A DNA stretch of 63,193 bases, filler included, from Folioceros fuciformis (GCA_049999805.1; 7 parts of 7 records of this genome joined end to end with filler, not necessarily neighbours in it); one strand, 5' to 3'. Numbered from the whole stretch's first letter, positions 1 to 61,027 are shown. The notes: a model not told the origin generated them from the sequence alone. A program made the numbers and translations.

Positions 1-395
1 GAGTCCGTAGGGAAGTGTAGAAGGTAGTGGTGTCGTTGCTGGTTGCTGGTAGTTGTTGGTGTTGGTGCTGGAGTAAGAGAGTGAGTGAAGTGAGTGAGGG
101 AAGTCACAGATCTGAGAGGTTAGGGTCGTTGTAGTGACAAGAGTGAGTTTGTGGGCACCGAGAGAGGTGCAGCTGACCGCTGGACAGCGAGGCCTGTCCT
201 ACGCCTGATCGGAGCTGGAGGGGAGCCCTCGAATCCATCATCGAGTTGATCAAGTCCGACCCTCCATCCACAGCAGCAAGGAACCCCATCGCTCCTTCGT
301 GGGAACGAAACCCAATGTCTGACCGACAGTGGGATAAGTGTGGCCACTAAAGGTGGAACCCGTCGGCAATCAGTGCCCGGGGTTTTGCCTCCACA
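1..395 (-). mobile_element. Repeat family A, probable LTR terminus (starts TGTGGAGGCAAAACC on minus), inserted into a Copia RNase H region
   Basis: Near-identical to 34275-34668 and, inverted, to 38184-38633. All three copies stop at the same base (...CCTCCACA) with different flanks (ctagg, ttttg, cttac). Confidence 0.8.
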
Positions 396-586
396 CTAGG
401 GCCAAACATATCAAATTATATCATCACTATGTCAGGGATGTAGCTGAGAGAGGAGTAGTAAAGGTGACATATATTCACGCAACTAGCAATACTGTAGACA
501 TCTTTACTAAAGGTCTCTCTAAAGAGAAACATTACAAAACATCTAGCCTCCTTAGGGCTCAGGCATTTTTCTCTACCAATTCCTAA
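396..586 (+). pseudogene. C-terminal Copia RNase H fragment (element C)
   Basis: RAKHIKLYHHYVRD...NTVDIFTKGL matches the Copia RNase H end (RTKHI..YHF.RD...ADIFTK). Confidence 0.85.
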
Positions 587-1440
587 TGCTACGTGAAGGA
601 ACAAAACGCAGCATGCTTGGATGAGTGATGATTCAACGGTCTTAAGTCACACTTTCTTGCGGGTGTGCTTTGGTTAGGGATACTTAGTGGATGAAGCTAC
701 AATGATGCAACCTAGTCGTGGGTAGCTCTCAAAGTTTTCCTGCTATGGTCTTACCTTAGTCTCTTGTTGGGTGGCGTAAGTACTTTAGCCTTTCCAACTT
801 CTCAAGCACAACATTGACCTCATCTCTTGTTGGTGATTTGTCTCCGTCCTTCTGTAGAGCTTCATTGCAAGTAATGCCTCTAGCTTGTATGTTCTCTCCT
901 TTGCATTCTTCAATACAGTCTTCAGCTCATTGCACTTCAGTAGTCTTTTGGAGGTTCAACAACAAGTCTATATTAGTGTGAGTTGGCCACCGGGCTTTTC
1001 TAGTCTTTGCCTCCGTGGGAGCAGACCTTAGCTCAGTCCTCCGTATGAGCTTCTCCTACTCCATTGTCACCGGCTTTAGGCTTTTCAGACTTAGGAGGAA
1101 GTTCGCAATCCCTACAGGAACTAGAGCTGTTTTCCTGAAGCTCTGGAGGAGGTCGGAGCTGCTTCTGCCGAGGTGGTTTGCAATCTGTGGAGCTCATTGT
1201 GGCGTCTTCAACAGCCAAAGTGATGAAGAGGACGATGGCAGTCATTCCTATTATACACAAACACTAGACTTCTAGCATGGATTTCATGCTGTGGAGCTGG
1301 GATTTGAAGTGTTTGCAATGGGCTTGTGGCACGTCTGGAGAGAAAAGGCTTGCACATGGTGGTGTTGGTTTTTTGTTAAGATCATAACGTGGTCGTAAGA
1401 TTGTGAATTAATTTTACACGCTACCATTAACCCTGTGGGT

Positions 1441-1598
1441 TAAGTAGGAGTGTTAGGGGTTGGATAGATAACATGTCGTGGTTAATTAGCTAACCTTAGT
1501 TACACAAACCTCTGTTTGTATATACGGACCACATTGTGCTTATTGAATATATGGTTTTCTTCTCCTTTGTTTTCGTTGTAGTACAAAGCAAGTTGACA
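1441..1598 (+). mobile_element. PPT plus short 3' LTR (1451-1598) of Copia element C
   Basis: Purine tract TAAGTAGGAG, then TGTTAG...TTGACA (148 bp) with an internal TATA-like TATATA. Confidence 0.6.
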
Positions 1599-1600
1599 AG

Positions 1601-2296
1601 GAGAACCACAAAAACCACAATGGTTTATGGGAAATCGAGCGTAAGAGGCTGGAGGGGTAGATTGAAGAGCTTTGCAAGTAGAACACAGGCCTTCGAGTGA
1701 AGGTTCGAGAGATGGAGAATCAAAATTATGAGGCCTAGGTAGGGCTCTGTAACACACAGGTCAAGGTTGTCGCTACCCTTCAACTTTGAAAGGAAGAGAG
1801 GGCCATGACCTTGGCCCTTGAGGAGCTCTAGTGGTACGTCACAATGGCGGCAGCTCAACACGCAGACCTACCAGAGGCTTGCTAGCAGTTAGAGTACCGT
1901 ACCCTACGACGAATGGTTACAGATGACATCTAGCAATTAAATGACAGTTTCAATTTCTATCAGGGAGAGATGCTTTGAGTTCTCAAGGAATCTGTAGAAG
2001 AAGTGGAGTGGCTTGATACTGCTGAAGAGTCAGTCGAGACAACGTTAGGACTGCAGACGCTCCCCAATTTGGCTGGTTTGGACCAGAGTCAGCATTCCCT
2101 GGCGTTTGAACCAAGGCCAAACGCAAGAGATTGACTGGAGGAGAGAATAGTCACTCTTCTAGTTACCATTGAGGGAGGAGAGTCTCCATCGATCATCGCC
2201 CTATTACTGTCACTGCCTCCAACCATAATTTTGGGCCCATCGCTAGCTGTCAGCATCATCCTACTAGCATACACTCAATTCTATTTCACCGAGTAA
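1601..2296 (+). pseudogene. Decayed ORF for an unknown coiled-coil protein, antisense and tail-to-tail to Copia B pol
   Basis: One frame reads WEIERKRLEG*IEEL...AAQHADLPEA...EYRTLRRMVTDDI*QLNDSFNFYQGEML*VLKE. All nine internal stops are TAG or TGA. Homologous to 61890-62499. Confidence 0.75.
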
Positions 2297-2389
2297 TTAT
2301 CCAGACTAATTTGCCGAGCCAGAGAAAAATTGTAGTAAGTGAACAACCATATTATAGGGTAGATAGTATGGCAGATTTTTTTAGATATG

Positions 2390-5300
2390 CATGATGCTAC
2401 TCATGTGTACCCTTAGGTAGGCCCTTAGTGAGGATGTCTTCAACATTCAGGGTGGTGTTGACATATTTGAGTTTAATAAGGCTCTGCTCTACAGCCTATC
2501 TCATATAGTGGAACTGGATTTCGATATACTATGCAGAACTGGATTGGCTATGAGTGCTACGGCTGAAAGATTATCACATTGTAGGAGAGTGGGATCTGAT
2601 TGTTTCCAATATATGCCATCCAGAAATTGTCTAACCCAAGTGATTTCTCTGGCTGCTAGGGAGAGGGCACCATACTCTGCCTCCATAGAGGAGAGGCTCA
2701 CAGTTGTGAGTTTCTTAGACTACCAAGAAATTGTTGAACCACCAAGTATAAGACAATATGTAGCTAGTGATTTTCTGCCATTTAAATCCCTTGCCCAATC
2801 TACATCGAAGTATGAGGTAAGGATTGTATTGGCTGAATGTGAATACTACATATAGAAGTCATGTGTGCCTTGAAGATAATGCAATATGCGCTTAACAGCA
2901 ATCCAATGCCGCTTGCTAGGGTTTGAAAGAAATATGGAGACAATGCCAACATCTAGTGAAATATTAGGCCAACTCCAGCCTACAAGATATAATAAACTCC
3001 CAACGGCTTCACGATAAGGTACTAAAGCCATTTCTGCTCTCTCTCCATTTGTAGTTGGGCAATCCTGAAGGGAAAGCTTATCCCCAGTTGATACTATTGT
3101 AGATACTCGCTTAAGATCTGTTAACCCAAACTTAGTAAGAAGCTGTTTAATGGAATGTGACTAATGAAAAGTAATCGTTTCACTTGCAGGATCAAAAGAG
3201 AATTGAATCCCAAGAGCAAAAGTCAAAGGCCCAACATCTGTCATATCCCACTCAAGGGATGGCTCCTTTTTAATCACTGTAAGAATTTGCTGATCATTAG
3301 CAAAGATAAAATTGTCGTCTACGTATAAGGCTATAATGCAGAGTTGGTTGTTTCTACGCAGGATGTAAACACTACTATCTACATCAAAGGGTTCAAAACC
3401 CAAAGCCTTGAGTTTCTTATTAGCTCTCCCATTTCAAATGTGAGATGATTGCTGTAAACCGTATAAGGACTTTAGCAATTCACAGACTTTATCAAGGTCA
3501 AGGATGTATCCTTCAGGCTGGTCCATGTCTATGATTTCATCTAATGGACCATTCAAAAATGCTCTTTTCATGTCCATTTGGTGGACAATCAATTTGTGTT
3601 TTATAACGTAGTAGAGAAGTAGCCTCATTGATGTTGGTTTTACAAAAGTCTCATTGTAATCAATTCCTTGTACTTGAGTATAACCCTTGGCCACTAATCT
3701 AGCCTTGTAGCGAGGCACTGAACTGCCTAGATTCAATCTCACTTATAATATCCACTTTGACATGATCATCGTCCTCCTTGGTGGTAAGTTGACGAGCTTC
3801 CATGTTCCATTGAATATTAAGCTGTTATACTCTGAGTCCATTGCCTTCTGCCATTTTGCATGTTGTGGACCTGACAAAGCTTCTTTGTATGTAAGTGGTG
3901 TATCAAGAGGTTCCATAATAGTGGAGGCAATAGCATTGACATAGGCCATAAGGTTGGCACGTGTTGGTTGACTAGGGGCTAAATTAGATGTAGATAGTGA
4001 CCTAGAAACAAAAGTGTCCCCTGGTGAATAGGGAGGCTTAATCCATTGAGATCTAGGTCTATGTTCCCTTGTGGATCGCCTTGGGGGAGTGATATTTAGA
4101 TCTACATGAATTTGCTATTCAGCTGGAAAAGGCGTTGGATCACGTTGTTCTACAATGTCTAAAGGCTCTACTTCTATTGTTGGATCATATTTGTCTACAG
4201 TAGCGATTGGTTCATATGCTGGCTGCAGATCTGGGATAATAGGATCAATGTCTACGTGTGCTTCAGGTGGTTGAGATGGTTGTTAAGGAGGGACAACTAT
4301 ACTATCTGACATATCTAGAAAAAGTGAGATGTCTAAATCATCAAAAATGTTGGCTTCAGGATCAGATGGCATATGGCCATAGATGGATGAATCTGACAAA
4401 GGCTCGTGACTTGAAACAGATTTCAGGTGGTGATTAAGAAAGAAGCTTTCATTAAAGCTTACACTACGTGCAAGAGTTAGCTGACAAGCATAAGGATTAT
4501 ATAGCTTATAGCCTTTGGAGAACTCAGAATAGCCGATGAAGATGTGTTTAGTGGCACGATTGTCCATTTTACCTTGCTTAGCCTCAAGCACATCAGCATA
4601 TGCAGCAGCTCCAAAGGTATGCAAGTGACTTATCCTTGGCTTGTGTCCAGTGCACCTTTCAAAAGGTGTATGATTGAAATGTGGTTTCACAGGTAATCTA
4701 TTTTGGACATCATTCATGGCTGAAACTACCTCTGCCAAGTATCCCCTGGTCAGGCCGGCAAGGGATACGGTCACTCGGGTGCACTCCTGCAACGTCCTAT
4801 TATATCTTTGAGCTAGATGATAGGGTAATGTTCGTTGATGAATGATACCCTTCTGCTTGTAGTAAGATTGGAAATCATGGCTCAAGTACTCCTTAACGTT
4901 ATCATTGCAAATATGTTTGATAACTTTGCTTGTCTAAGTCTCAGCCAAATGAACATAATCAAGGAACTTGTCATAAGTTTGGTGTTTGCTGTGTAGAAAA
5001 AATATAACACAGTAGTAGCTCCATTCATCCCAAAACATAAGAAAATAAACAACACCACCAAAAGACACAATGGACATTGGCCCACAAAGGTTAATGTTTG
5101 TTGATAAATTGAATTGCGTGTATTACCACATATACACACAATTGCNNNNNNNNNNCTACGTTTATATGTATGTAACCCTAACGAGGGGTTTTACTTCAAA
5201 CAATGTTAATGACATCAAGTAATCCTAAGGCTTTGGTAGGCTCGGGGTCATTGTAGGGTTTTTGAGCTAATTTGCTTACCTAGCAATTTTCACAGAAAAG

Positions 5301-6853
5301 GGTTTCCAAAACTGTGATCTTAATAGGGTCCTTACAAAGCTCAGGAGTATTGACCATGTGTCTAATGTATGTGATACTGGGGTGGCACAACCTATAGTGC
5401 CCGAGGAAAGTGCTGCTTACTTTAGAATGGGAGCCTAATATGAAAACCTTGGGATCTGAAGTTGTGAGCTGAAAACGATATAATAGGTCATTGTAAATGA
5501 CTCCTTCGCCTAGTATCTCAGAAGGATATGTAGCTTGTGTTGTAGAGCAACCTGCTGTGGTAAATGTTACTAGTAGCCCATGATACAAAATTAGCCTATG
5601 GATGGACAGACGATTTTTGGTCATATTGGGGACATGCAAGACTCCAATCAGTTGAAGATGCTTGCCTCCATTCAATGGCAAGATGACATGCCCATAATTA
5701 GCTATTGCTAATCCACTATTATCCCCAAGCAAAACAAAATGCTTGGATGGTGCAGAATGGTAAGTGAGAAACTCATCTCTTGCTTGACATATGTGGTTTG
5801 TTACTCCTGAATCAAGGAACAACATGTCATTTTTTGCTTGTACTAAAGATAAACAAATTGCCAAAATGGTTGGCGCTTTAACACTCTGAGTGATGCTTTT
5901 TTGTCCACGAGACACAATGTGTGACTCAACACAAGGTGGAGCATTGCGTCCGAGCTCTCTTGCCCTCTTTTTCCTGCATTCACTTTCATGGTGTCCAGGT
6001 ATTCGACACTAGTGACATGTCCCCTTCACCTTTCACTGTGGCTGCAAGAAGGAGGGTGTTGTTTATGGTCTCCTTGGACCAAAAGATGGCTTGTCAGGGC
6101 CTTTGCCTCTTCCTTGTCCACATGAGGTGAAGAGAACTTTATGTTGAATGTTGTTGGCTACGTCCAGTAGCTGTCCTACTTAACTCCTCTTCGAGTAGGG
6201 CTCCAATGATCTATAAGGTTGTAACTGCAGGTGTACCAGCGGCTGAAGTAGATTGAACAGCTTGTCTTATTACAAAGTTTTGCGAACTTACAAACACTCT
6301 GTAGCTGGGGGGCAACAAAGTTAGAAGAACTACAGCTGCTTGCAGTTAAGGTATATTTGTTTCACATGAGGATAGTTTGGCCCGTAAGGTATGGAACTTG
6401 TGTATATGATTCTCTATGCTATCACTATCCTTCATTCAAAGAGCATAGAAGAGTTTGGCCGCATTTATCAAAGACAGAGTCCTTGACGGCAAACATGTCT
6501 TTGAACACTTTCCATACACTTGCTGATGTGGGTTGTCCTTATGTATGCTAAAGTATATTTTTGTCTGCAGCTGACAACATGATATTTCTAGCCCGCTTAT
6601 CTTTTTTGTTCCAAGTAGTAATAACAAAGGCTGCTGCTAAGCCTGAAGCATGTGGCAATCCTGTTGATGTTAGTGAGCTTGGCTGGGCTAGAGATCCATC
6701 AACAATGTCCATGAGGTCATGTTCCTTGAGCTTCGCTGTTAGTCTCATTTCTCAGATTGCATAATCTATTCCATTAAAACAATCTCTGTTCCTAAATTCA
6801 ATTTTTGTTGTGTTGTCAATTATGGTGTTGGAAGTTGACCCTCCTCCTGACAT
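2390..6853 (-). pseudogene. Decayed Ty1/Copia gag-pol (element B)
   Basis: On minus: gag from ATG 6853 (EFRNRDCFNG), protease FLDSGVTNH, integrase, RT RYKARLVAKGY/LYVDD, RNase H EAEY/CDNLSA. Copia domain order with many stops and frameshifts. Confidence 0.95.
5099..5202. mobile_element. Solo LTR (or element collapsed into the 10-N gap) inserted in the Copia B integrase
   Basis: TGTTG...AAACA bounded by the 5-bp duplication ATGTT (5094-5098, 5203-5207). It splits the integrase LDVINI/LCGPM segment. Confidence 0.85.
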
Positions 6854-6981
6854 CGTTCATGGTTGGATGTAAAAGGTAACATCTATCTATTACAAGATGC
6901 CCTACATGTTAGAAGTATGTAAGAAAGAGGCTTCTGACCTATCTAGTCTATGGACCTATTGTCGTAGAGAATGGAGTGTTC

Positions 6982-7404
6982 CTAAAACATACTGGCGATG
7001 GAGATCAAGGCTTGCTCAGTAGGTTTAGGTATGACCATAAGGCTAGCGACTAGATCACAACAAGAGACATTAGGTTTTACAGATCCACTTGAGTTATTTG
7101 AGGTGGATATGCAGATTTTCTCCTGTAATTGGGTGACCTGCTTCTCTAAGGCTCCTATGTGTTTCTTGATGTTAATCATGTCTTTCTTGTTGTTCAATTT
7201 GTTGTGACTAGCCTTCTCTTCTAACAACTGGAGTTTGTAGGTTATGAGTGCTAAGCGGTGTCTAAGAGATTTCTTATCAAAATATGGAGGTGTCAGAGGA
7301 TGAAGATGGCTTGCTAAGCTATTAGAATCATGGTGAATTGGTGGCTGCACCACCCCTAAGAAAGGACCTTGAGAGTGACAACAAGCATGCTGACAAGTAC
7401 GCAA
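6982..7404 (-). CDS. Extra heptad-repeat ORF in the 5' leader of Copia B
   Basis: Lies between the putative PBS and gag. MINIKKHIGALEKQVTQLQEKI has 3/4 hydrophobic spacing. Start codon is non-ATG and uncertain. Confidence 0.45.
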   Translation of the reverse strand: MRTCQHACCHSQGPFLGVVQPPIHHDSNSLASHLHPLTPPYFDKKSLRHRLALITYKLQLLEEKASHNKLNNKKDMINIKKHIGALEKQVTQLQEKICISTSNNSSGSVKPNVSCCDLVASLMVIPKPTEQALISIASMF

Positions 7405-7449
7405 TTACTGTATCGCTGATTTATGTTATTATGTGATCAGGATTAGACG

Positions 7450-7644
7450 CTAAAGACGCGCCACTGTATTAGCATAAAGAAAAGGTGAATACAGCGCCGC
7501 GGTCTCGTGACCTTGACGCGGTGACGGTTAGGAAACCCTAACCGTCTAGCCCTAAGCCTGTCTCTCTGGGTTAGTAGACATAACCTANNNNNNNNNNGCC
7601 CTAAGCCTGTCTCTCTGGGTTAGTAGACATAACCTACCCTAACA
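7450..7644 (-). mobile_element. Probable 5' LTR (7465-7644) and non-Met PBS of Copia B
   Basis: On minus: TGTTAGGG...AATACA, then G-TGGCGCGTC. The duplicated sequence around the 10-N gap inflates the length. Confidence 0.55.
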
Positions 7645-8348
7645 TTATGAGTCATGATAGGATATGTTGTCACTTGCTATTCCTAGCAAGGCTTTCTCGT
7701 ATACTGCATTCTTGCCAATATTGCCTAGACAATTGAAAATGTCTTTGCATCTCTTCTGCAAAGTAAAGGAAAGACCCGTATTGGGTTCTATTGCAAGGTG
7801 CCCTTCATAATTTCAGAATACAAACTCCATCAGCAATTAGCGCGTAGCACATATACTATATGCATATGCTATGATACCATAAAGAAATGTGCACAAGAGC
7901 ATTGGACACCAGCAAAAGATTCACGAGAATAAGGTGTTTGTTATGAGAAGCAAAATAGCGTAAGTACACATAAAAGATTGTAACCATTTCTAAACCTAGT
8001 TATAAGTAACCTAGTGTGGTAGGTAGGCCTTTTGTTATTCCACATCATGACATTTTGAGAGCAGTAGGTAGTTTTTGAAAATGATATTCGCAGGGGAGAG
8101 TACCTCTTTTTGCCTTTGGCCCTAATGGGGTTGTTCCTGCAATCTGTGGAGTAGATGGGACTTTCCATCTCTTTTTCAATCATAGAAAATACGCGTTAAA
8201 AGTAAACTAATATGGTTCGTTCTTTTCAGGGTTTGTAGATAGAAGCGATTCCAATAGCCCTGGACTTGCGTTTCCCAACTAGCCAAGCCATGGTGCTTGA
8301 CTTTGTAGCTCGGGCTCACTCTTGCAACTTGCCAGTGCTGATCCCTAT

Positions 8349-8588
8349 TTATCCCTCATCGTCCTCCACGTAGCCAATGTAGGCAAAGTTGGAGTACTTT
8401 GGCAGCACAAGGCCACCTTGCTTGATTGTGATCCTAGCAGCGGCCATTTGGGTGTCTCTGAGAGACCAAGTGTTGGACCAAGCTTACACTCTACCTCTGT
8501 CGGTACATAGAATCTCCCGAGGCTCCTTCAGTTGCAGCTCAGCTCTGAAGCCTGGTGTGACATACACGTAGGACAAGGCTTCAACCAT
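8349..8588 (-). pseudogene. 11S globulin/legumin-like cupin N-terminal fragment
   Basis: ELQLKEPREILCTDRGRV*AWSNTWSLRDTQMAAARITIKQGGLVLPKYSNFAYIGYV resembles the first cupin domain of plant 11S-like proteins (..GAAKL.L...GF..P.YSD..KVAYV). One internal stop. Confidence 0.5.
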
Positions 8589-8671
8589 GGCTCAGGCCAG
8601 CGCCCAATGTTTGATGTTGCTAACCTCCACAACCTTCCCTAATAGATGTTGTCAAAGACAGAGAGGGACTG

Positions 8672-8870
8672 TGAAATGGTGCTCCCCTCCCTGAGTATGG
8701 TAAACCCAACATGAGTTAGCCTAACTTAGGTTAGTTAACCTGTGGTTAGCTATATAGTTTATTATTTTAAACCCTAAACATTTATATATGTGCTCTCTTG
8801 ACTTCTTATAATGTAATGAACTATTCATATGCTTTCTAGCTTCCGCTGTATGTTTTCATGGTATCAGAGC
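8672..8870 (+). mobile_element. 5' LTR (about 8672-8858) and tRNA-iMet PBS of Copia element E
   Basis: TGAAA...TTTCA followed directly by TGGTATCAGAGC (8859-8870). Confidence 0.85.
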
Positions 8871-8998
8871 CATGGATTTTTGTTTTGCCACAATCTGTGT
8901 TTAGTAGATGTTTTTCGAGCAATTTTTTATGGGAAATTGTTGTGGGAATTTGATGATGCATTTATTTATGTGATAAATGCCTCATTTCTCACACACCG

Positions 8999-9349
8999 AT
9001 GGCGCGGCGTCGGGGAAGTGGTGTTTTTGATGGGTCTCATTCTCGATTTTCTGACAGGTTTGTGGATCAGTCGGGGAGATCTGGCCGTGGTAGGAAATCT
9101 CAGAATGCTTTGTCACGGCGTGATTTTTACTACGATCGGATGCAGGAGTCTAGTGAAGATACCCTAGCTGATTTTCTTGCCAGCACAAATTTGAGGACGA
9201 GACCACCAGAATTCACACTTTGTTCCCAGCTGAACAGCATTGAGACCTTGCTTGGTCGCATCCTGGATGAACAGGCTAGGCAGGCGAGCCGTCTTGATTG
9301 CTTTGCTGTGAGAATTGCTGGCTTATTTGAGAGATTTTGTGAGTCATAG
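8999..9349 (+). CDS. Extra 116-aa ORF with C-terminal coiled coil in the leader of Copia E
   Basis: Intact ATG-to-stop ORF between PBS and gag. LCSQLNSIETLLGRILDEQARQASRLDCFAVRIAGLFERF keeps 4/3 spacing over about six heptads. Confidence 0.55.
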   Translation: MARRRGSGVFDGSHSRFSDRFVDQSGRSGRGRKSQNALSRRDFYYDRMQESSEDTLADFLASTNLRTRPPEFTLCSQLNSIETLLGRILDEQARQASRLDCFAVRIAGLFERFCES

Positions 9350-9914
9350 GGCCGGAAATCATGTACTCAGCTTTGTGACTGTGGCTGTCAATTGCACCGT
9401 GATTTTGTGGCGAAGGGGAGCGCGGTAGGGATGCCGGCTTCCCCTCAGCATCTCGGTGAAGGATTGTTGTGACCCGGATCAGGATGGGCGCGGCACATGT
9501 GTGTGTGATCTGGAGCGGTGCTTGTCATGCTTGGGTCGCGGTGTGTGCGTGCCATCCTGTAGCGGGTAGTTGCAACTGAAACGAAACGAAAGGCACTTAA
9601 GTTGGAATATCGGTTCGGTTCCTTTTTAGGTTTGGGCTTTGTTTAAGTTGGAATAACGTTTCGGAATTCAAGTTGGAGTTTCGTTTCGAGTTTCTAGTTG
9701 GGGTTTCGTGTCGGTGCTTAAGTTGGAATAACGGTTCGTAGTTTTTAGGGTTCAGTTCTAGCATATTCTTTTTAATATCTTTTAGGCCTTTTTTTATTGT
9801 TTTTAGTGTAGTTTCTTTCTATGCTTGTAAACTCATAATGGGCTTACAATCTGTTTCCCTTGTGCTTGTAACTTTCAGCATCTTTTCTATTGTTTTTATT
9901 TCTTTCCCTTTTGG

Positions 9915-11127
9915 ATGGAAGTAGATGACATAGATGCTGATAGTGAATCAGATGTTAACACTCTCTCTGAGTCTTTATCTCGTTTAGTGTTGTCTTCTGG
10001 TCCCATAAATCCATTATTGGTGCAAGCACAAACACCTCAGATTTTTCCAATCATGGCTAGTTCTGCTCTTTCCATCCCTGTTCCTTCAGTCGTTTCTTCT
10101 GGCTATGGGGGTGAATTTAAAGAGAAAGACCGTTTTGATGGGAAACCTGCTAGGTATGAAGGTTGGCGAGCTCGTATGAAGGCACATCTGGATGCGCGTG
10201 ATGTGTGGGAGTATGTTGACGGTACTCTACCCGATCCTCGCAAGACTCCAGTTACTGCTCCCAACCAACCAACTGCTGATGAGATTGCCAAGTGGAAGAA
10301 AGGGAACAAGACAGCCTTTGCTATTCTCCTCTCCGGCCTGGATGAACCTATGGTGACCGAGGTAGAGTACTTGGAATCTGCAGCAGCAGTGTGGAATCAG
10401 CTTAAGGAGACATATAAGGTGCAGAATATTCTTACTTTGGTAGCTGCTCGGAATGAGTTTCATTCCTTACGTATGAAGGAGGGTGATTCGGTCGCTGCTC
10501 ATATCAGCCGTTTTAGGCTTCTGCGGTCACAACTTACTTCTCTGGGGAGTGTTTTGACCGAGAATGAGGCTGTTGCGCAGCTCCTTTCCAGTCTTCCTTC
10601 CTCCTACCAAAGTTTTGTTTCAACACAAAATGCAGCCTTACGATCTTCAGTAGCTGCTGTTTCTGCTGGCCAGGTGCAAACTCTTACATTCAGTGAGCTT
10701 GTTGGTGCACTTTTTCAAGAAGAGCAGTCCCGCCATCGGAGTGGGGGACAACCACAGAGAGCTAGGAGTGAGAAGGTGTTGTTCGCTGCCAGAGGAAAAC
10801 CATTCGTGAAGAACAAAGGGAAGAAGGTTCCTGCCAATCCGGGAGCCCCCTCCACTAAGCGACAAGGCAATTGTCATTGGTGTCAACTTCCTGGTCATTG
10901 GGAGAGGGACTGCCGTAAGAAGAAAGCTGGAGAGCCAAAGAAGGAGGTTCGGCTGGAAGCTCATGTTGCTGCAAAGGACAAGGGCTCAGCAACCTCTTCT
11001 CGTAAGAGCAGCTCCACAGTTCTTACAGTTTGCCTCACCTCTACTAGGAATGTTTCTTCTGCTTGGTATATTGATTCTGGGGCTACTTCTCATGTCTGCA
11101 ACAATAGAAGTCTTTTCACTACTTATA
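9915..11127 (+). CDS. Copia gag and start of protease (element E), cut off at segment end
   Basis: Uninterrupted ORF with gag core, zinc knuckle CHWCQLPGHWERDC and protease WYIDSGATSH. Confidence 0.95.
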
Positions 11128-11227
11128 NNNNNNNNNNNNNNNNNNNNNNNNNNNNNNNNNNNNNNNNNNNNTTAATTAATTAANNNNNNNNNNNNNNNNN
11201 NNNNNNNNNNNNNNNNNNNNNNNNNNN
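11128..11227. other. Artificial joining linker; identical ones at 33833-33932, 38634-38733, 45688-45787, 52264-52363, 56847-56946
   Basis: 44 N + TTAATTAATTAA (stops in six frames) + 44 N, six times. Confidence 0.98.
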
Positions 11228-12464
11228 CCCCTGGCGTCTGCTAATAAATTCCCCCAGGCCTCTTATCCTTGCTCTTGCTGAGACGGCTGCAAAAATCCCT
11301 CTCCACCAAATCCGTACGTCATCAGCAAGGCCACCCATAATTGGGATCAAGTCACTCAACAACTCTCCCTCTTGCTTGCAATCTGTCCCACTCTCTCAGC
11401 TTTTCCTTGCATTGTGCTAAGATGAATTTTTTCAATCCCTCAGGTCCACCCTCCGAGTTAGCATTAGGCACCTCCACAAATACTTTGCATGCTGAATTTT
11501 GGCATGCTTCCCTTCTAGCACTTTTGTCCTGTAACTCCCATCTCTCTCCATGAATGTTGGAGCTTTCGTGGGTGGACGATCCTTGACCCCACTAGGCCTG
11601 TATTAGATCTATCCTTCAATGAATCCTTATCCTTCACCCCCTGGAAACCATTGTTCAGCTCATTAGGCTTGAGGCGTTTTCCAACTCGATCGTCAACCTT
11701 CTTATCCAATGATCGCATCTTCTCTTCCAGAAGGAATACCCTATTCTCCAACTCATCAACACTTGTCTTCAGGTTGTTAAGAGGGCTTCTAGCAGCTTCC
11801 CGGACTCCTTCGTCCCATCAAGCTCGCAGCAGCAGAAGTCCCCCACACCAGACTACCCTTGGCCAGTTCCGCCACCGGAGCCACCTTCTGCGACTCCATC
11901 TGCGACCCCGCACAGTAGAACATCAACTTCCCAAGAGCTTCCCGGCCATCGTCCCCTACTCCCTGCTTGGTTTCGGCCAGCAAATCGGAAGCCATCTCTG
12001 GTGCCCGAGATAGGCAAGGTAGACTTCCCTCCACAGACCTCCCTCTGACACGTTAGAAAACTGTTTGCACACCTTCATTAACGTGCTTATCAAATCCCCG
12101 ATCACCAAGCACCTGTCGCCAAGCCGTTCCAACCACCAAATCGGGCGCCTCATTGTTGGCCAACACCTCAACCTACACTTGTAGCCCAAGCCCTAGGTCC
12201 GCGCAACCGCCTGGATCTGACCCCCGACCAGCCAGGCTGCGTCGCCTGACATCCGCCATGTTCCGACTAGATCCGGCCCGGCGTGCCTACCCGCTTGGAC
12301 CCTGCAGCCTGCTACCATAGATCTACCTCGGCCACAGCCCGCCGGAGCACCGTGCCCCTGACTTGCTTGCCTCCACCGTAGCCAGCCACTGTGATCCAGC
12401 CTGCCGCCTAACCGTGATACAACCCACTTTCCCGTCACCTGCAGCCGGCCTGCCTGATGTGCGT
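11228..12464 (-). mobile_element. Remnant of repeat family H (decayed ORF plus GC-rich leader)
   Basis: AAGGTGGCTCCGGTGGCGGAACTGGCCAAG on minus matches AAGGTGGCTCTAATAGAGGAACTAGCCAAG near 39017-39046. The GC-rich flank resembles 39300-42000. Confidence 0.5.
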
Positions 12465-14870
12465 TGTGGAGTAAAATGTTGTGTTTGGGGACATTAAGGT
12501 CCACACTAAACCTCTATGTCATTGTAGCCATGGGATTTGCTCCCAAGGGAATGATTTGTGCCGAGTAACGCTAACTTCTACCACTACTGACTCTTGCCTA
12601 GGTCAAGCCTTATCCACTTCCGTTTCTACTACCCACTAGCTCCCTACCACTACCCCCGGTTAGCCTAGCTATCGTTGACCCTACGACCATGGTCATTGGT
12701 TCCGCAACTGGTAGTGGTCTCCACGACCGTGGCGGCTCCCACCCAAAACCCTAGCGTATATTTTCCTGCACATGTGCTGCCGCGAGTTTCCACCACGGGT
12801 TTCTGCCCCAGGGGCTTCTAGAATCACATATCTAGTCTTATTGGATGCTCCACACACATGCAAATGCTAATCCTTGGGGGACAAGACCCTGCAAATTAGC
12901 CACACTCCCCCACACCCACATGCACCACTCCCCACACATGCAAAACACACCAGAACTCTGGTGTACACTTATTCCTCACAGGCCTGTCTCCAATTGTCTC
13001 CAATCTTCCAGCAACGCCCACAAATCTTCAACGAATCCTTCACAACACCTCACAAGCTTCAACAATCTCAACAATCCTCCACAAATGTCTAGAAATCTCT
13101 CCGAAATCCTTCAAAACTCACATCCCAGCTTCAACACTCTTTCTCAATCATCCAGCAATTTCTCAGCAATTCTCTTCACTCTCTAGCAATCTCAGCAATC
13201 TTCTAGGTCCTCCTCAGTGTCTCAACTCACTCACTCCTTCTCTTCACTCCCTCCTTCAGCCTTTCTTCTTATCACACACTCACTTCAGCACCAGATTCAA
13301 AACGCAGCCAACAGTTCTGGGAATAAGGGAAGGAGAAGCTCTCCTTCCACTTCGCGCAACGAGTGGATTCGTCCCTCTCCTCAGCTACAGACCACAGTAA
13401 GTCTTCTTGTCACACACTCACTTCTTTAACCTTCTTCTTCTTACACACTCACTCTTCACTTGCTCCTTCACACTCCCTTTGAGGTCTCGTCTTCTCACAC
13501 ACGCTCTTCAACACCAGATTCAAAACGCAGCCAATGATGGGTCAGGGAATAAGGGAAGGAGAAGCTCTCCTTTCACTTCGTGCAACGGGCGGATTCATCC
13601 CCCTCTCCTTAGCTATGGACCACAATCAGTCTTCTTCTCACACACTCACTTCTTCAACCTTCTTCTTCTTACACACTCACTCTTCACTCGCTCCTTCACA
13701 ATCCCTTCGATGCCTCATCTTCTCACACACACTCTTCAACACCAGATTCAAAACACAGCCAATGGGTCAGGGAATAAGGGAAGGGGGAGCCCCCCTTCCA
13801 CTCCGCGCAACTAAAAGATTCATTCCCCTTAGCTACGAAGCATAATCAGCCGTTTCGGGGATAAGGGAAAGAGAAGTTCTCCTTCCACTCCGCGCAACTG
13901 GAGGATTCGTCCCCCTCACCACTCACCGCAAAACACAAATAGTGATTTAGGGAATAAGGGGAGGGTCCTTCCACTCAGCATGTAATTTGCTGATTCGTCC
14001 CCCTTAACACCAGCTGCGGAGCAAAAGCTCTCAACCACCCCTAGGAGCGTCGCACACACATTACCCACCCAAGCATCTCCCATCCAGCCATGGGCAGCGC
14101 GGGGATCTCGACCGGGAAGAGTCTCCAACATTTGCTAATTCCCGAGGCTCAACAGGCCCCTTTGTACAACACGTCAGGCGGGATCGTCGCCGCCATTAAG
14201 TCCGGTCTTAAGTAGTCAAGTGCTCTTAATTGCGAGCGGCATTAGGTCCAAGAAAGCATCTTCACCAAATCTTAACTAAATATTATTTTAAGATGCAATG
14301 AATTCTAGCCTATCCTATCACTGCGCTTGCCTCCTATCCGGCCTCTGCGTACTCCTTCCTCAGCCGCCGAATCCCCGGGCTCTCCTCCCTCTTCACTGGT
14401 CAGGCAGATCCTCCCATAAAACCTCCACCTCACTCTTGCTGCCGCCAGACTTCTCTTGTTGAGGCGTGGGTGGGGTTCGCGAGGGGGTCCTTCCCCCACC
14501 TTCTGGTCGCCTGTTGCTGAGGACCATCACAGTTTCTTGTGCTTCCTCTTCTGTGAGTTCCTCCAGTACCACCTCCGAGTAGCAGGGAGGCAGCCCCACA
14601 CCTGGAAGCAATGGGAGAAGCATCACCTGTAGGTCCTCAGTTGCAGGCATTAAGTGTAGAGGAAAAAATATTTGCGAACCCCCTTCCTAAGTGACGGATT
14701 TGGTGGAATTTGGTTTTTTGTGTGAAGTGAAGGAGAAAGCGGCTTAGGTTGAGAATAAAACAGGGGTATTTATACACAAGACCTCCTTAGACCATGGGGT
14801 TTTGGAATGGACCAGTAGTCGGGCCAAGTGTCCGGGGGGCTAGTTGGTCCTTGGGTCTTGGTAGTGGAAT
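12465..14870 (+). mobile_element. Repeat family F copy 1 (TGTGG start, internal tandem units, antisense ORF remnant)
   Basis: Colinear but diverged homology to the reverse complement of about 15405-17531. Minus-strand TATAAATA (14767-14774) lies upstream of ORF 14393-14650. Confidence 0.7.
13200..13980 (+). repeat. Tandem units with core GGGAATAAGGGAAGGAGAAGCTCTCCTTCCACTCCGCGCAAC; inverted counterparts at 15880-16380
   Basis: Core visible near 13319, 13545, 13770, 13857 and 13950. Confidence 0.85.
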
Positions 14871-14881
14871 GAGCTTATATA

Positions 14882-17531
14882 TGTAGACTCCCCCCCCTAA
14901 TATTAGAAATAAGAAACGACGCCTAGGTGAGGCAGGTCATGGACTTAGGCTAGGAAATAAGGAAGTTGTGACTCAACAATGGTCGGGGAAGGTGAACCAC
15001 CGTCATGGAAGGACAACTGGTGGTGGGACTCTGGCGGGTAGTGGAATCGAAGCTGAGAAGGGAGGTAGTCGAAGCTCAACGACGGTCGTAGAAGGGGCAA
15101 TCGATAGTGGATGCCGATGGTAGTCGTGGAAACGAGACGGCCATCGGCGGATGGAAACCATGAGGGGAAGGGCAAGGTCAAACAGAGAAGCAGGTCCATG
15201 ACTAAGGTAGTGAGAGCCGCTACCGGTAGAGGAGAGACAACACCGGTAGTGGGAAGCTCTACCCTGGTTGGGGAACAGCGATGTTGCGTAATCATCAACC
15301 AAGGTTGCTGAACCCCCTACCTGCACCAGGAGGACTAGAATGGAAACAGTTGCAGCCAGAGTGGCAGGATGCACTCTAGCATCCTTGGAGGGCAAAGAGC
15401 AAATAGCCAGCAGCGGGAGTGAGGTGTTTAGGGTTTAGGGTTTAGGGAGTGAGGTGGAAGGATTTGCCCAATCAGCAGCATGGAAGGGGAGCCTGAGGAT
15501 TTGGTGGCAGAGGAAGAAGGGCCAAAAGAAAGGATAGGAGGAGAGCGTGGCGCTAAGGTAGGCTAGGAGTTGTTGCATCTTAAAATAGTATTTAGATAAG
15601 ATTTGGCAAGATGCTATCTTGACTTGGTGCCGCCTGCCATTAAGGGCACCTTTTTTAAAGTTAACTGTTTTTAGAACTAGACTTTATGGCGGGGCTATGG
15701 CTCCTACTCTTGGATCTCTGTACAAGGGGGCCTATTGGTGCCTCTCTGATTAGCAAATGTTGGAGACACTTCCCGGTTGAGATCCCTTGCGTTGTCCATG
15801 GCTGGATTGGGAATGTTTGGGTGGGCAGTGAGTGCAAGACGCTCCTAGGGGTGGTTGAGCACTTTTGCTCCACAGCTGAGAGTGAGGGGGACGAATTTGT
15901 GAGTTGCGCAGAGTGGAAGGAGCACCTCCTTCCCTTAGGTGCTCCTTCCCTTATTCCCTCAATGGCCAGTTGTGTTCTGCAGTGGAAAGTGAGAGGGACA
16001 AATCCACCAGCTGTGTGGAGTGGAGGGAGAGCTTCTCCTTCCCTTATTCCCTGAACGGCCGATTGTGGTCCGTGGTGAGTGGTGAGGGGGACGAATCCAC
16101 CAGCTGCGTGGAGTGGAGGGAGAGTTTCCTTCCCTTATTCCTTGAACCAGTGACTACGTTTTGAATCTGGAGTTGAAGAGCGTGAGTGAGGAGGAGAAGA
16201 AGTCTTAAGGAGTGAGTGAGTGAGGACGAGAAGGAGGCTGAGGAAGTGAGTGAGTGAGGAGGAGAAGGATGAGGACTGATTGTGGTCCGTAGTTGAGGAG
16301 AGGGGACGAATCCACCCGCTACATGGAGTGGAGGGAGTGTTTCTCCTTCCCTTATTCCCTGAACCATCAGCTACGTCCTGAATTTGGTGAGGAAGAGAGA
16401 GTTGAGAGAATGAGAACTTTGGAAGATTGCTACGAGATTGTTGGAGAACTGAAGAGAAACGCTGAGAAATTGCTGGGTGATTGTTTGCTGAAGTTTGAAC
16501 GAGATTGCTGGGGAATTTTTGAGGAATTCCTAGATGTTTGTGGAGGACTATGGAAGGTTGCTGAGGTTGTTGTAAGATTGCTGGAGAGTTGGGAACATTG
16601 CTGGAGAACTGAAGAAAACGACTAAGGAGTTGCTAGAGAATTGAGGAAGAGTGCTAAAGATTGGATGCGAATCTTGGAGAATTTCGAAGAGATTTCAAAG
16701 TGTTGTAAGTGGCTGTGGGAGATTGTTGAAGCTTGTGAGGAAGTGTGAGGAGTGGTGAAAGATTGTGAAGGGTTTGCTAGAAGATTTGGGGACATTGCTG
16801 GAGATTGAGACCCTTGGGGGCAAGCCTGTGAGAATAACTATGAACAAGAGCTCTTGTGTGTGTTTTGCATGTGTGGGAAGTGCTGCATAAGTGTGTGTGG
16901 AAGTGTAGCTCATCAGCGGGGTCTTGTTACCCAAGGATCATCACTTGCATGTGTGTGGGACATTCAATATGCCCATATTTGTGAGTCTGGAAGGCCTGGG
17001 CAAAAACCCGTGGGTGGAAACCCGCGGCGGCACATGCGCCGGAATTTAATTAGTTAGGATTTTGGGTGGGACCCACTATTGTCGTGGAGACCACTACCAT
17101 TGTGGAGACCATCGACCGCGGTCGTGGAGTAGGTAGGGCCCACGGTAGCTAGACTAACTGAGGGGTAGTGGAATCCGCCACCGGCTGTGGAAACCCTATC
17201 GGTAATTGGAAGGTTAGTAGTTGTGGAGGCCCCAACCGGTTGTAAAGGGGGCAGTGGTAGTGGAGACCCCTACGTTGGTTGTAGAGTGCGGACTAGAGTT
17301 GTAGAGTAGGGTCTATGGTAGCTAATCTAGCTGAGGGGTAGGGGTAGTTGAACTAGCAAGTAGTAGAGCTGAGGGGTAGGTAAGACCTGACCTAGGTGAG
17401 AGCTGACTTTTAGAAGAAACCTGTGTTATTTGGCACAAATCATTCCCTTGGGAGCGAATCCCATGGCTACAACGACATAGAGGGTTTGTGTGGACCTCGC
17501 GGTACCCCCAGGTACAATATTTTTCCCCACA
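14882..17531 (-). mobile_element. Repeat family F copy 2, possibly a long (about 2.65 kb) LTR
   Basis: On minus: TGTGGGG at 17531, preceded by purine-rich AGGGGGACAAGGG, with a candidate end GAGTCTACA at 14882. No matching TSD. Confidence 0.6.
15418..15456 (+). repeat. Interstitial telomeric insert (TTTAGGG)3 with 9-bp flanking duplication
   Basis: AGTGAGGTG + (TTTAGGG)3 at 15427-15447 + AGTGAGGTG. Confidence 0.9.
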
Positions 17532-24300: not shown

Positions 24301-27300
24301 AAACGGCCAAAAGATTTGACGGTCACTCCACGTTTTAGCATTTCAAACAAGCCCATCAATACTCAAAATGCTCAAACATCATCTAACCTAATCTCATGAA
24401 GAGTTGAGAAGACTCGGTGGATTGTCAGGGTTGGCAGGAGCTTTAAGGTTGACTGTGTTTGCCGACAAGACTGAGCGACATCACCTGAAGATCAATTCAA
24501 TGTCAGGGGTTGCACATCAGCTTCCAGACACTGTGGGGGGTAGAACTCAAGGCAACAAAGGTGTCGACATCAATACCAAGGTCACCCAGTGAGTTGTACA
24601 GCTGCTTAAGCTTCGCTACAGGCATGCTGGTCGCCTCTGAAATAGCTTTAAGTATTAGGTTCGCCCCGATACACAATTCCTGAAAACCAAAAGCCTCATA
24701 TCTTTAAGACACTGCACAAGGGTCACCAAATGCAGTACTTTCTGCATCGCTTTAAGATCAGGTCTTTTACCAACAATGACATGCCAATATTTTCATCCAG
24801 GCAACGAAGATAGTAGCAAGCCTGATACAAAGATAAAACACACTTGACTCTGAAAAGCTTACTTTGTTCTCAAAGTCAGGACTTATACGATTTATGGTCA
24901 GATAAGTTGCAGGGAGGACATCACTGGGAGACAAGTCCACCAAGCTGCACAAAACACCAAAAGGCCATTAGACGTTGCATGCTATCAGTCCCATGGCTTG
25001 ACAATCGCCCCATGAAGTGAAAAGAGATGAACATAAGACGTCCCAACACTGTTGCTTTGAGACAAACCTTCGGAACATGTTGCATAGCATGTCTGTTGAT
25101 TTCAGTCGTCCACTTTCCTTCTCAATCAGGTCAAAAGATCGTGCCAAGTGCAGATATGGTGCTGGAGTGCCCATTTCCCAACAAGCTGCCATTACAGTGC
25201 AATGAATGAGAACAATCTCCTCTCAACACATGACACTTTTGAAAGTATTGGGGTTCCTTGCAATGACTTCCGACATACGAATAACATGGACAACGATATT
25301 CTCACTCTACTGTGCCACTATTTCCAGGCCTTCACAGGTGCAACTGGTACATACTACCATGAACTCCAGGAATGTACTTTGAGATGGGGGCCGCGATTGA
25401 TGCATCAAGGCAAGAAAATTGCATCTGTTCAAGGTTTGATCCTTTCACAGTGTGTTTCGCTGGCTTGAGCTCCTCTCTCCATGAGTTCCCTGCACTTATT
25501 AGCTCCTGTGAACTTGCATCCAGCTCCTGGCAAGTCCTCTCACATACCAACCCAGTACTCTCCAACAAATAGGGTGCTTGTTGACCAGAACGGTTATACA
25601 CCATCTCAACTGCCCCGGCTACATCACCACCCACTTTGCTGACAATCTCTTCCGCATCCCTTTCAGAGATATTTCCTTCTAGCATCGATACAAGGTGTTC
25701 AATCTCAGTTTGCCAGATACTTCTACCACCAACCAGATTGATCTCTTTGCTCAGTTTCCTGTCCTGCTGCCCGCCTTCAGATTTCAGTACCTTGCTATTC
25801 ACACACGGCCTACACTGTCCTTCAGTTGTTGGGGAAGTGAAAGCATCCACATGGTGGTCAGTTGGTCCTGAGGCTCCCCTAAAGAAGTCCAGGATTGAAC
25901 GCTGAGCACCGGCTTTCTTGCTATGTGAAGGCATGGTTGAGCATGCTGACTTCAGCTTTCCTGGAAGCTCTATGCCTGTTGGGCTTCTGGATGTCTTGGC
26001 AGATACATCAGCCTGCACCTTTGCTGTCAAAGGGTGTGGTGACCGCAGATGACTGAGATTGTTCCTGGAAGCAGTTTGAGATGGCTGGACAGGTGCTTTT
26101 GGAAAAACAGTGTGAGACAAGGCAAGACCATCCATATTCTTGGTCACCTGCTGTCGATTCGGACGGCGATCCTTTCGTTTTTGCAACTTGTTGGAACCCT
26201 TGTTACTTGTCTGATGCATCTGTGGCCAAATGATGATCTCCTTAGAGATCTCCTTGGCAAACGTGGTTTCTTGCTCAAAAAATCGAATCACCGCTCCATT
26301 CACATCCATATTGGCCTGCACCAGCAACCTCTGCACCTGAGCCCTACTGACACACTCTGGAAGTATGGAAATAAGCTGCGCTTCCTTCACTTCCCTAGTT
26401 ATATCAGCACCCAGACCATCATGTAGGGTGTTTGTCCCACCACTTGTCTCTCCAGTCCCCCACTCTGGACAGGCACCAACAGTATGCAAACTGGGCAGAT
26501 CTGGATCTGACGATCTGCAACTTCCTCCATCTAAGTGACCGTGTGTCCTGACCTCCATCGAATTTTCAGAGGCATTGACACTCTGAGAATTGGGGATAGA
26601 ACGACAGACACCATGGTTCTGTTCGGTCCCTCCCTGCCATGCACAACTCTCTCTCTCTTTGAATTTAGTCTCCTTCCTTTTTTTCCTCGAACTGAATCCA
26701 AGGGCAGCCAACGGAGCTGCAAATGCTGGTGCCAGTTCTTCGTTAGGCCTACTCTCAACTGCATGTGTACTTTCTGACTCTGGATATGCAACTGCGTTGA
26801 AACAAGGAGCGCCCCCTACCATCTCACGCTGTCCACCAGTCTCAGAGAGTGACTTTTCTTGCCCTGAACTATTTGTACTGCCGAAAGCCTTGAGAAAGCA
26901 ACGTTTACTAGCTATCTCATCCACAAGATTCCGAAAGTGCTTGAGCATAGATGCCGTTGCTTTCCCAGTTCTATCGTTGTCTCCTATCCCCACATTAGGA
27001 ATGACGCTCTTCGGCCTCAAAAACCGAATGTACTCACGAAGCTCCTCATAATTTGAATGCTCGCTGTAGGGAACCAAATGTACCTCTAAAGGGCCTTTCC
27101 TCCTCACATCAAAGGAGGTCTTTTTGGATTTATTGTTCCAACCTGTGGGGATAAATCCAATAATCCGATTCACCCCGCTTTCATGCATATATTTTTCCAT
27201 GTTGCCGAAGTTAGGTCTAAAATACGGCCATGTATCACCTAACAGATTCCATCTAACTACATGAACACTAGTGACAGACGGATCGCAAGTGAACAAATCC

Positions 27301-33832: not shown

Positions 33833-33932
33833 NNNNNNNNNNNNNNNNNNNNNNNNNNNNNNNNNNNNNNNNNNNNTTAATTAATTAANNNNNNNNNNNN
33901 NNNNNNNNNNNNNNNNNNNNNNNNNNNNNNNN

Positions 33933-34668
33933 GTGTTGCCGGCTGTACAGTGTCTGGTAGGATCGCAGGCAGCGTGTTCCCGGCTGTACAGTGTCTGGTA
34001 GGATCGCAGGCAGCGTGTTGCCGGTTGTATAGTGTCTGGTAGGATCACAAGGTGTAATGACCAGGGTGTAGGGGCTTGCCCCTAGCTCTTGATTGTAAAG
34101 CGTGTGTCTTTCTCTCAACCTGTCCACTCTTGTTCCTTGCTTGGTCAAGTGCTGTAGGCCGGCCATGTCTCATGGCGTCTGGTAAGGTTGTGGGGAGGAG
34201 ATACCCAAGAGGGGAGTGTGTTCCCTTCTTCCTTTTGTTTGGGGTTAGTCTAGTGACTCTTGCCGGGTAGGAGGAGTCCGTAGGGAAGTGTAGAAGGTAG
34301 TGGTGTCGTTGCTGGTTGCTGGTAGTTGTTGGTGTTGGTGCTGGAGCGAGAGAGTGAGTGAAGTGTGTGAGGGAAGTCGCAGATCTAAGAGGTTAGAGTC
34401 GTTGTAGTGACTGGAGTGAGTTTGTGGGCACCGAGAGAGGTGCAGCTGACCGCCAGACAGCGAGGCCTGTCCTACGCCTGATCGGAGCTGGAGGGGAGCC
34501 CTCGAATCCATCATTGAGTCGATCAAGTCCGACCCTCCATCCACAGCAGCAAGGAACCCCATCGCTCCTTCGTGGGAACGAAACCCAATGTCTCAACGAC
34601 AGTGGGATAAGTGTGGCCACTAAAGGTGGAACCCGTTGGCAATCAGTGCCCGGGGTTTTGCCTCCACA
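33933..34668 (-). mobile_element. Repeat family A copy 2, with a 41-bp tandem (about 3 copies, 33933-34050)
   Basis: Matches 1-395; tandem unit GTGTTGCCGGCTGTACAGTGTCTGGTAGGATCGCAGGCAGC. Confidence 0.8.
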
Positions 34669-34803
34669 TTTTGAGAGGAGACAAATGTATGGTAGCTAAC
34701 CAGGAGGCTAGCCAATAACTAAACAGCAGCTTCAAATTCGGTGATGGTTGTCCCAAGAGCAGCAAGTTGGGCTGTGCATAAAGTGAAGGGAGCAAGCACT
34801 TGC

Positions 34804-61025: not shown

Positions 61026-61027
61026 GG

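Follow-up and report, generated by a model that had tools for sequence, protein, structure and literature searches.

Two decayed copies of an orphan protein-coding family among transposon debris in Folioceros fuciformis

The stretch of DNA analyzed here, referred to as the window, spans 63,193 nucleotides (nt), filler included, of Folioceros fuciformis (GCA_049999805.1). It contains two related and degenerate reading frames on the plus strand, which we call copy A and copy B, both of which lie among fragments of mobile elements (Table 1). A sequence-only reading of this DNA had described copy A as a hidden member of a conserved protein family, located antisense behind the pol gene of a decayed Copia retrotransposon (Copia B), and had proposed that it represents an uncharacterized accessory gene of a Copia lineage. 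The window itself is composed of separate contigs strung together by six linkers, each consisting of 44 N, TTAATTAATTAA and a further 44 N, and it contains additional gaps, seven of 10 N and four of 100 N. Copy A belongs to the contig at 1-11127 and copy B to the contig at 56947-63193. Because the contigs were concatenated in this way, their order and the distances between them carry no meaning, and A and B lie at no common locus.

Table 1. Positions of the two copies, their aligned blocks and the surrounding features in the window.
Feature	Position	Strand	Details
Copy A, whole read-through frame	1601-2296	+	9 internal stops (6 TAG, 3 TGA), terminal TAA 2294-2296
Block 1, copy A	1610-1822	+	71 codons, heptad-patterned helical segment
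Block 2, copy A	1835-2005	+	57 codons, AAQHxxLPEA motif, two to three helices
Copy B	61926-62499	+	First in-frame ATG to TAG 62497-62499; stops TAG 61980-61982, TAA 62139-62141
Block 1, copy B	61998-62210	+	Partner of A 1610-1822
Block 2, copy B	62221-62391	+	Partner of A 1835-2005, free of stops
Copia B, decayed element	2397-7000	-	RVT_2 7e-49, SH3_retrovirus 3e-20, Pol_BBD 5e-14, Retrotran_gag_2 3e-8, rve 6e-4
3' end of second Copia pol	398-590	+	Last ~60 codons, cut on left by repeat 1-397
End of very abundant repeat (...CCACA)	1-397	+	96% to 34274-34668, 95% to 38578-38182
Gypsy-like gag, protease and start of reverse transcriptase (RT)	56956-58901	+	Open reading frames (ORFs)
Copia integrase-RT-RNase H	58951-60740	+	50 nt after Gypsy-like piece, runs into 100-N gap 60741-60840
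SPT6-like fragment, 36 residues	60888-60995	+	E 1.7e-4 to Spt6 (7xn7_m residues 282-317), right after 100-N gap
tnp2-type (CACTA) transposase fragment, degenerate	61024-61218	+	PF02992 Transposase_21, E 6e-4, 19.5 bits vs cut-off 28.6, profile 128-192 of 213
Linkers	11128-11227, 33833-33932, 38634-38733, 45688-45787, 52264-52363, 56847-56946		Spacer, stops in all frames

Copy A becomes legible only when its stops are read through, and the nine TAG and TGA codons that were said to hide it were all counted. Its frame opens at 1553 and extends over 248 codons with the stops read as X, without an in-frame start codon near the 5' end. Copy B is read through in one frame over 61878-62210 and in the next over 62197-62640. 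The two copies are colinear over 128 codons in two ungapped blocks, close to the alignment of about 130 residues reported earlier. Within block 1, 19 of the 66 comparable residues are identical, and within block 2, 29 of 54 (29 of 57 columns); tblastn within the window recovers block 2 at E 2e-14. The 38-residue core contains 23 identities with its two stops read as Q and R, as previously stated, and 21 unrepaired, and the motifs HxxxWExERKxL and AAQHxxLPEA are common to both copies. The blocks are separated by 12 nt in A and by 10 nt in B, a net loss of 2 nt between 62210 and 62221 that implies a frameshift in B. The homology of copy B stands as first described, with the addition of a frameshift that was absent from that description.

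Beyond the core, both reading frames remain fairly open, and their tails (A 2006-2296 and B 62392-62499) are not homologous, with an alignment score of 25 against a shuffle mean of 29. A third copy was not found in the window, where a hidden Markov model built from A and B and run against six-frame translations gave a best other match with an independent E-value of 1.8. Coiled-coil composition can inflate weak alignments, and the modest identity of block 1 would fit a resemblance due to chance or composition, with no common gene behind it. Such a reading is effectively refuted and retains a negligible probability: in 500 composition-preserving shuffles per block, local alignment scores never reached the observed values, which were 77 for block 1 (shuffle mean 31, maximum 61; z 8.7) and 130 for block 2 (mean 29, maximum 47; z 21.8). 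Moreover, the blocks are colinear, and their conservation follows codon periodicity.

This periodicity is evident even though the copies are barely comparable as DNA, with standard blastn finding only 55 nt at 73% identity and relaxed scoring 131 nt at 65%. Identity at the first, second and third codon positions was 0.46, 0.61 and 0.27 in block 1 and 0.70, 0.68 and 0.40 in block 2, against a chance level of 0.25 given by base composition. Taken together, positions 1 and 2 were identical at 155 of 256 sites, compared with 42 of 128 at position 3 (Fisher p 3e-7). Nei-Gojobori proportions of nonsynonymous (pN) and synonymous (pS) differences were 0.47 and 0.85 in block 1 and 0.29 and 0.76 in block 2, a selection signal that agrees with the proposed conserved protein family. 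The dN/dS comparison suggested by the sequence-only reading thus yields a pN/pS of 0.39-0.55 between the two copies. With pS at 0.76-0.85, synonymous sites are saturated, which makes A and B very old relatives.

Codon periodicity alone is blind to strand. When all six frames were scored, the plus-strand frame described above was the best in both blocks, with BLOSUM sums of 83 and 134 and a runner-up of 29 in block 1, which identifies it as the coding one. Two antisense candidates were set aside. One, the antisense frame whose third positions coincide with those of the plus-strand frame, reached 116 against 134 in block 2, but only 3 against 83 in block 1. In the 119-amino-acid antisense ORF at 62225-62584, the second codon position is the one that varies most.

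The stops of copy A also provide information about its decay. Seven of them fall in the aligned blocks, and four of these face W, W, Q and R codons of B (A/B pairs TGA/TGG, TAG/TGG, TAG/CAA and TGA/CGG), each being a single C>T or G>A transition from a codon for the residue found in B. The last two pairs are the core positions at which B had been noted to carry Q and R, in line with the C-to-T decay then suggested; the remaining three stops face CGA, AAG and GAG and are uninformative. The ratio of observed to expected CpG is about 0.5 in A and in B. Both copies are dead, A through its nine stops and B through two stops and the frameshift; neither can make protein now, so no present function exists at either locus. 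Frame-specific conservation between copies is therefore found together with disabling mutations, the combination by which pseudogenes are recognized. On the strength of the alignment, we consider it confirmed that A and B are relics of a real, once-selected protein-coding gene family.

Regarding the product of this family, an AlphaFold2 model of A 1610-2014, with X at the stops and B supplied as alignment rows, consists of nine helices and nothing else (mean predicted local distance difference test 76, predicted template modeling score 0.38), which indicates that the protein would have been extended and all-helical. The best heptad register of block 1 is the same in both copies, and the fraction of hydrophobic residues at its a and d positions is 0.70 in B (0.24 elsewhere) and 0.55 in A (0.27 elsewhere). 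Together with the modeled helices, this conserved register bears out the coiled-coil character attributed to the protein. The last ~35 codons of copy A are hydrophobic, with a 19-residue Kyte-Doolittle mean that peaks at 1.96 over residues 202-220 when 1610-2296 is translated; copy B lacks such a tail (maximum 1.11) and has a proline-rich one instead. The ancestral product would have comprised roughly 200-230 residues, all helical, arranged as an N-terminal heptad coiled coil of ~70 residues, the AAQHxxLPEA motif and a helical core of ~40 residues. An intact protein of this layout could have acted as a coiled-coil oligomer, in the manner of a structural or regulatory accessory factor.

Searches for relatives gave uniformly negative results. 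An exhaustive phmmer search of copy A against 1,835,955,588 representative proteins returned no match at E<=1e-3, and word-based searches with the second part of B, at near and at longer lengths, retained 0 of 350 and 0 of 25 candidates at E<=0.01. Pfam yielded only sub-threshold coiled-coil noise for A and B (Shugoshin_N at E 0.1; DUF7801 at E 1e-4, below its cut-off) and no transposon family for either copy. Scans with the core alignment confirmed 0 of 87 pattern matches in metagenome contigs and 0 of 31 in viral contigs. The best score in the ESM Atlas for B 62209-62496 was 0.85, below the 0.9 level of a lead, and pointed to unrelated prokaryotic clusters. The structure prediction proposed in the sequence-only reading was productive in part: it supplied the helical model, which found no counterpart in PDB or BFVD with Foldseek at E<=1e-3 (best E 8 or more). 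A Caulimovirid VAP-like protein, considered in view of the coiled coil and the proline-rich tail of B, was likewise without Pfam or BFVD support. As judged from these comparisons, A and B constitute an orphan family, with no Pfam family, protein relative or fold match in the databases searched.

The surroundings of copy A bear directly on its proposed link to Copia. Copia B has its gag near 6900 and its pol stop at 2397-2399, so that, as reported earlier, A ends tail to tail with pol and with no LTR-like repeat in between; the measured distance is 100 nt (LTR, long terminal repeat). A second Copia pol, on the plus strand, ends upstream of A. This tail at 398-590 matches the C-terminal 70 residues of ORF 35787-36869, which carries RVT_2, at E 4e-13, with 51% protein identity between 392-532 and 35933-35793, and has 62% nucleotide identity to the Copia B tail at 2527-2403. 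Being only 62% alike in DNA, the two tails come from different Copia lineages. Copy A thus occupies a 1.8-kb stretch between two facing pol ends, antisense and 100 nt away from one, sense and ~1 kb away from the other. Given the opposed plus-strand tail, a position 1 kb downstream in sense orientation fits A as well as a position 100 nt downstream in antisense. Two fairly open frames on the minus strand at 759-1245, head-to-head with A, comprise 70 codons from an ATG at 1245 and then 99 codons with one stop; they correspond to no Pfam family, and the stretch 759-1055 had 0 matches among longer proteins.

An accessory ORF would be expected to lie inside an LTR pair, between the pol stop and the polypurine tract or 3' LTR, and no such pair was found around copy A. 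In a repeat search of 1-16000 complemented by sensitive blastn, no direct repeat was found that links 380-2420 to 7880-8870, the region beyond a site resembling a primer-binding site (PBS), or to any other part of the window; only the core of B and the Copia tails match. This PBS-like site occupies 7868-7879 of the minus strand (TGGTATCATAGC, one mismatch). PBS-like 12-mers with up to two mismatches occur six times in the window, against 6.2 expected by chance. A conjectural short LTR at 1453-1584, preceded by a purine run and containing a TATA-like motif, was compared with the sequences upstream of five PBS-like sites and with 34671-35786, and was rejected with z at most 1.1.

Contigs from three DNA runs of the source sample (among them X1 and X2) were compared with the locus at a likeness of at least 80%; contig depths were summed and do not equate to copy numbers, and 4313 further contig pieces exist beyond those listed. 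Over 851-2380, the X1 depth of 9.83 is that of the locus's own contig (record 3, covering 725-2635 with 0 differences), except in the bin 1701-1870, and X2 contributes two own contigs (6.48 and 6.02). Among the contigs listed, relatives that are 87-90% alike (records 5, 6, 8, 11, 14 and 15) cover 2381-5100 and stop at ~2381-2495. A conserved gene of Copia B would be expected in these relatives at similar likeness, and the lack of A from their listed contigs leaves the Copia link unsupported; an accessory ORF should occur in most copies of its element family and be conserved like pol, a pattern that A does not show among the contigs listed. In one X1 contig, position 395 is joined to 2382, and a Copia-B-like pol end there meets other sequence ~15 nt past its stop. 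The repeat at 1-397, on the far side of this junction, has a summed X1 depth of 6.6e4-2.5e5, compared with ~10 for its unique neighbors, and loose contig ends pile up at 395-397. The stretches of this abundant repeat, at 1-397, 33933-34668 and 38182-38633, are all located at contig ends.

These observations can be placed beside what has been described for plant LTR retrotransposons. Additional ORFs lie mostly between pol and the 3' LTR, in sense (env-like) or antisense orientation, and no clear database similarity is described for the antisense examples Grande, RIRE2, Retand and PvRetro13 (PMC7264820). For common bean, the authors of PMC4093653 assign all 15 families with an antisense ORF2 to Ty3/gypsy and report two Copia families with sense env-like ORFs, some of the ORF2s having given ‘SMC’ (coiled-coil) matches. 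Retand elements carry antisense ORFs with a TRP28/PF04195 domain in 97% of clusters (PMC11963269). In the abstracts and passages searched on antisense and additional Copia ORFs, a plant Copia antisense ORF is not described.

By analogy with these Tat/Retand Gypsy ORFs, copy A could be an accessory ORF that the Copia B lineage carried in antisense, placed after pol and before a 3' LTR since lost. Its stop lies tail to tail with that of Copia B pol, the region beyond pol is where plant LTR elements usually carry extra antisense ORFs (PMC7264820), and its coiled coil recalls the ‘SMC’ matches of Gypsy antisense ORF2s (PMC4093653 and PMC11963269). Like the aORF-3R group of Tat/Retand (Grande gene23, RIRE2, Retand ORF4 with TRP28, bean ORF2), A and B are orphan, helical and devoid of an enzymatic domain, and locus A is antisense just past a pol stop. 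Unlike Retand ORF4, neither A nor either part of B matches PF04195 (Transposase_28) at E<=1 or E<=10. Furthermore, the neighbor of A is a Copia and not a Gypsy element, no LTRs enclose it, no repeat matches the region past the PBS-like site, and the listed contigs of the neighbor's 87-90% paralogues extend over pol without reaching A. Around the third Copia pol end of the window, at 35790 on the minus strand, the A+B profile detects nothing that resembles A, and no Copia pol stands in antisense position to B. For these reasons, we regard an antisense gene of Copia B as highly improbable.

A sense arrangement, in the position of the SIRE-type env-like ORF of Ty1/copia elements, accounts for other features. 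Against three Copia pol ends in the window there are two copies, A being antisense to Copia B and sense to 398-590, and B having a Copia pol in sense orientation on the other side of a 100-N gap. Both copies share the strand of an upstream Copia pol (for A the one at 398-590, for B that at 58951-60740), ~1 kb or more past it: the plus-strand tail ends at ~590 and homology in A starts at 1610, while the Copia RT/RNase H enters the gap at 60741 and homology in B starts at 61998. Env-like proteins combine a coiled coil with a hydrophobic C-terminal stretch, and copy A shows this order. However, SIRE env-like ORFs follow pol immediately and encode conserved transmembrane segments, and neither property was found in A or B. 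The spacers, of at least 1 kb, are non-coding or foreign, and no LTR was found; 591-1609 and 60841-61997 have no mutual similarity, the plus frames of 591-1600 are full of stops, and the spacer of B consists of SPT6-like and tnp2-like fragments instead of Copia sequence. In addition, the hydrophobic tail is present in A only, and the tails are not homologous. A sense ORF of this type is consequently very unlikely.

The contig of copy B presents, all on the plus strand and in this order, Gypsy-like, Copia, SPT6-like and tnp2-like pieces, followed by B from ~61890. The earlier observation that no recognizable pol lies downstream of this second copy holds, in that no Copia pol in antisense position occurs past B. 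The suggestion that the copies are tied to Copia 3' regions is not supported by B, which comes after a tnp2-like fragment of equal orientation and belongs to another contig than A. No LTRs were detected at the junctions of the five truncated coding fragments within 56956-62499, and no inverted repeats in 56947-63193, where the window ends 700 nt after B. From the order and truncation of these matches, B is to be read as a member of a series of truncated coding fragments with no mutual relationship, which may possibly have arisen through template-switch or capture chimeras, through deletions, or through chimeric assembly. The SPT6-like fragment, ~30 nt from the tnp2-like one, resembles the N-terminal region of the transcription elongation factor SPT6. 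Considering both loci, that is, the two opposed pol ends around A, the missing LTR pair, the contigs of relatives without A and the fragment string around B, the interpretation of A as an accessory gene of a Copia lineage antisense behind pol is not supported by the sequence.

The tnp2-like fragment raises the possibility that A and B derive from the second gene of a CACTA (En/Spm-type) transposon, with B behind an internally deleted transposase and A as an isolated fragment. Second ORFs of CACTA elements are poorly conserved and lineage-specific, which would explain the orphan status of the family. Copy B starts ~110 nt past the end of the tnp2-like stretch on the same strand, and a pyrimidine tract followed by AG just upstream of A, a possible splice acceptor, would fit a multi-exon gene. 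Nevertheless, the Transposase_21 match lies below the Pfam cut-off, no terminal inverted repeats were found in the contig of B, and the stretch 1-1600 beside A, read in all six frames, showed neither a transposase remnant nor a tnp2 signal. No Pfam transposon family was assigned to A or B, including PF03004 and PF03017, which we take to be the models of the TNPA/TNP1-like CACTA second ORF. We accordingly rate a CACTA origin as distinctly unlikely.

A further alternative derives A and B from a host gene confined to this lineage, as pseudogenes or transduplicated pieces that capture or rearrangement dispersed. The SPT6-like host-gene fragment that precedes B by 1 kb in the same orientation is consistent with this idea, as are the acceptor-like site at the 5' boundary of A, the ATG in plausible context with which B opens, and the fact that, among the contigs listed and apart from the bin 1701-1870, the locus's own contig stands alone on 851-2380. 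Similarly, Pack-type or Helitron-type transduplication would produce strings of unrelated coding fragments on one strand such as the one in the contig of B, although no carrier termini were identified there and the surroundings of A are of mixed orientation. On the other hand, no relative appeared in a protein library expected to include annotated plant proteomes, and two dead copies in 63 kb of repeat-rich unplaced contigs fit a dispersed repeat better. A host gene is thus unlikely, if less plainly so than the transposon genes discussed above.

The explanation toward which we lean, if only slightly, is that A and B belong to an orphan family that was moved by or carried on mobile elements, of a class not readable from the window, and that the adjacency to Copia is incidental. 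Under this explanation, the two copies would be relics that decayed independently, whether as pseudogenes or as fragments of genes, and that stem from one orphan family. Since synonymous sites are saturated between the copies, purifying selection acted on the family over a long time, and both copies died later, mostly through TAG and TGA stops of the C>T and G>A type and, in B, through a frameshift. Mobile elements may have carried the gene or shuffled its fragments, and the closeness of A to the Copia B pol end, at 100 nt, would have resulted from nested insertions and deletions among dead transposons and would not mark A as a Copia gene.

Several points weigh against this explanation. It draws on two copies only, neither of them intact, and the mobile-element-borne character is deduced from context and orphan status; in the databases searched there was no intact copy and no relative from another genome. 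The phmmer query was broken by its nine X, so relatives much more distant than B would escape it. The contig evidence is a weak negative, based on contigs matched at a likeness of at least 80%, on the pieces listed and on a depth that is not copy number, and the X1 depth of 13.4 in the bin 1701-1870, compared with 9.83, hints at one short related piece elsewhere. Finally, three Copia neighbors, two for A and 58951-60740 for B, may be more than coincidence, a point tempered by Copia being the commonest coding content of the window. If those neighbors did matter, A and B could represent an unseen accessory coiled-coil gene family of Ty1/copia, placed beyond pol in sense or antisense within an old lineage with eroded LTRs. 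We consider this decidedly improbable; were it true, the extra ORFs of Copia would gain a new protein type beyond the env-like sense ORFs.

The roles of extra ORFs in plant LTR retrotransposons are still unknown (PMC7264820), and a survey that tied the present family to one transposon class would add an uncharacterized accessory protein to those of plant mobile elements. As matters stand, A and B are a curiosity of modest weight and do not amount to a new retrotransposon gene. These results indicate that stops, when read through, can reveal genuine coding sequence under ancient selection that ORF tracks and protein databases miss, and that closeness to a pol end says little about belonging where repeats are nested and contigs concatenated.

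Additional observations concern the assembly and the remainder of the window. At 7549-7636, identical 39-nt flanks stand on both sides of the 10-N gap 7588-7597, which is probably an unmerged contig overlap where the sequence is continuous. Over 1-5100, run X3 differs at 369 C>T and 159 G>A places, with every other kind of change at 23 or fewer; it resembles a library made from this sample after bisulfite conversion, in which case the methylation of A and B could be read from it. Run X4 (guessed to be RNA) has contigs on 1-397 only within 1-5100, and no RNA record covers 1401-2500, which is uninformative either way for A. Elsewhere, a tandem array at 13264-13916 has a period of ~225-228 nt and copies that are 63-91% alike, and long imperfect inverted repeats at 13873-14416 and 15455-15999 adjoin it. 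On the minus strand at 25332-27884, an uninterrupted ORF of 850 codons carries a DRMBL (DNA-repair metallo-beta-lactamase) domain at E 1.6e-18 and is apparently an intact SNM1/Artemis-type gene within the transposon debris.

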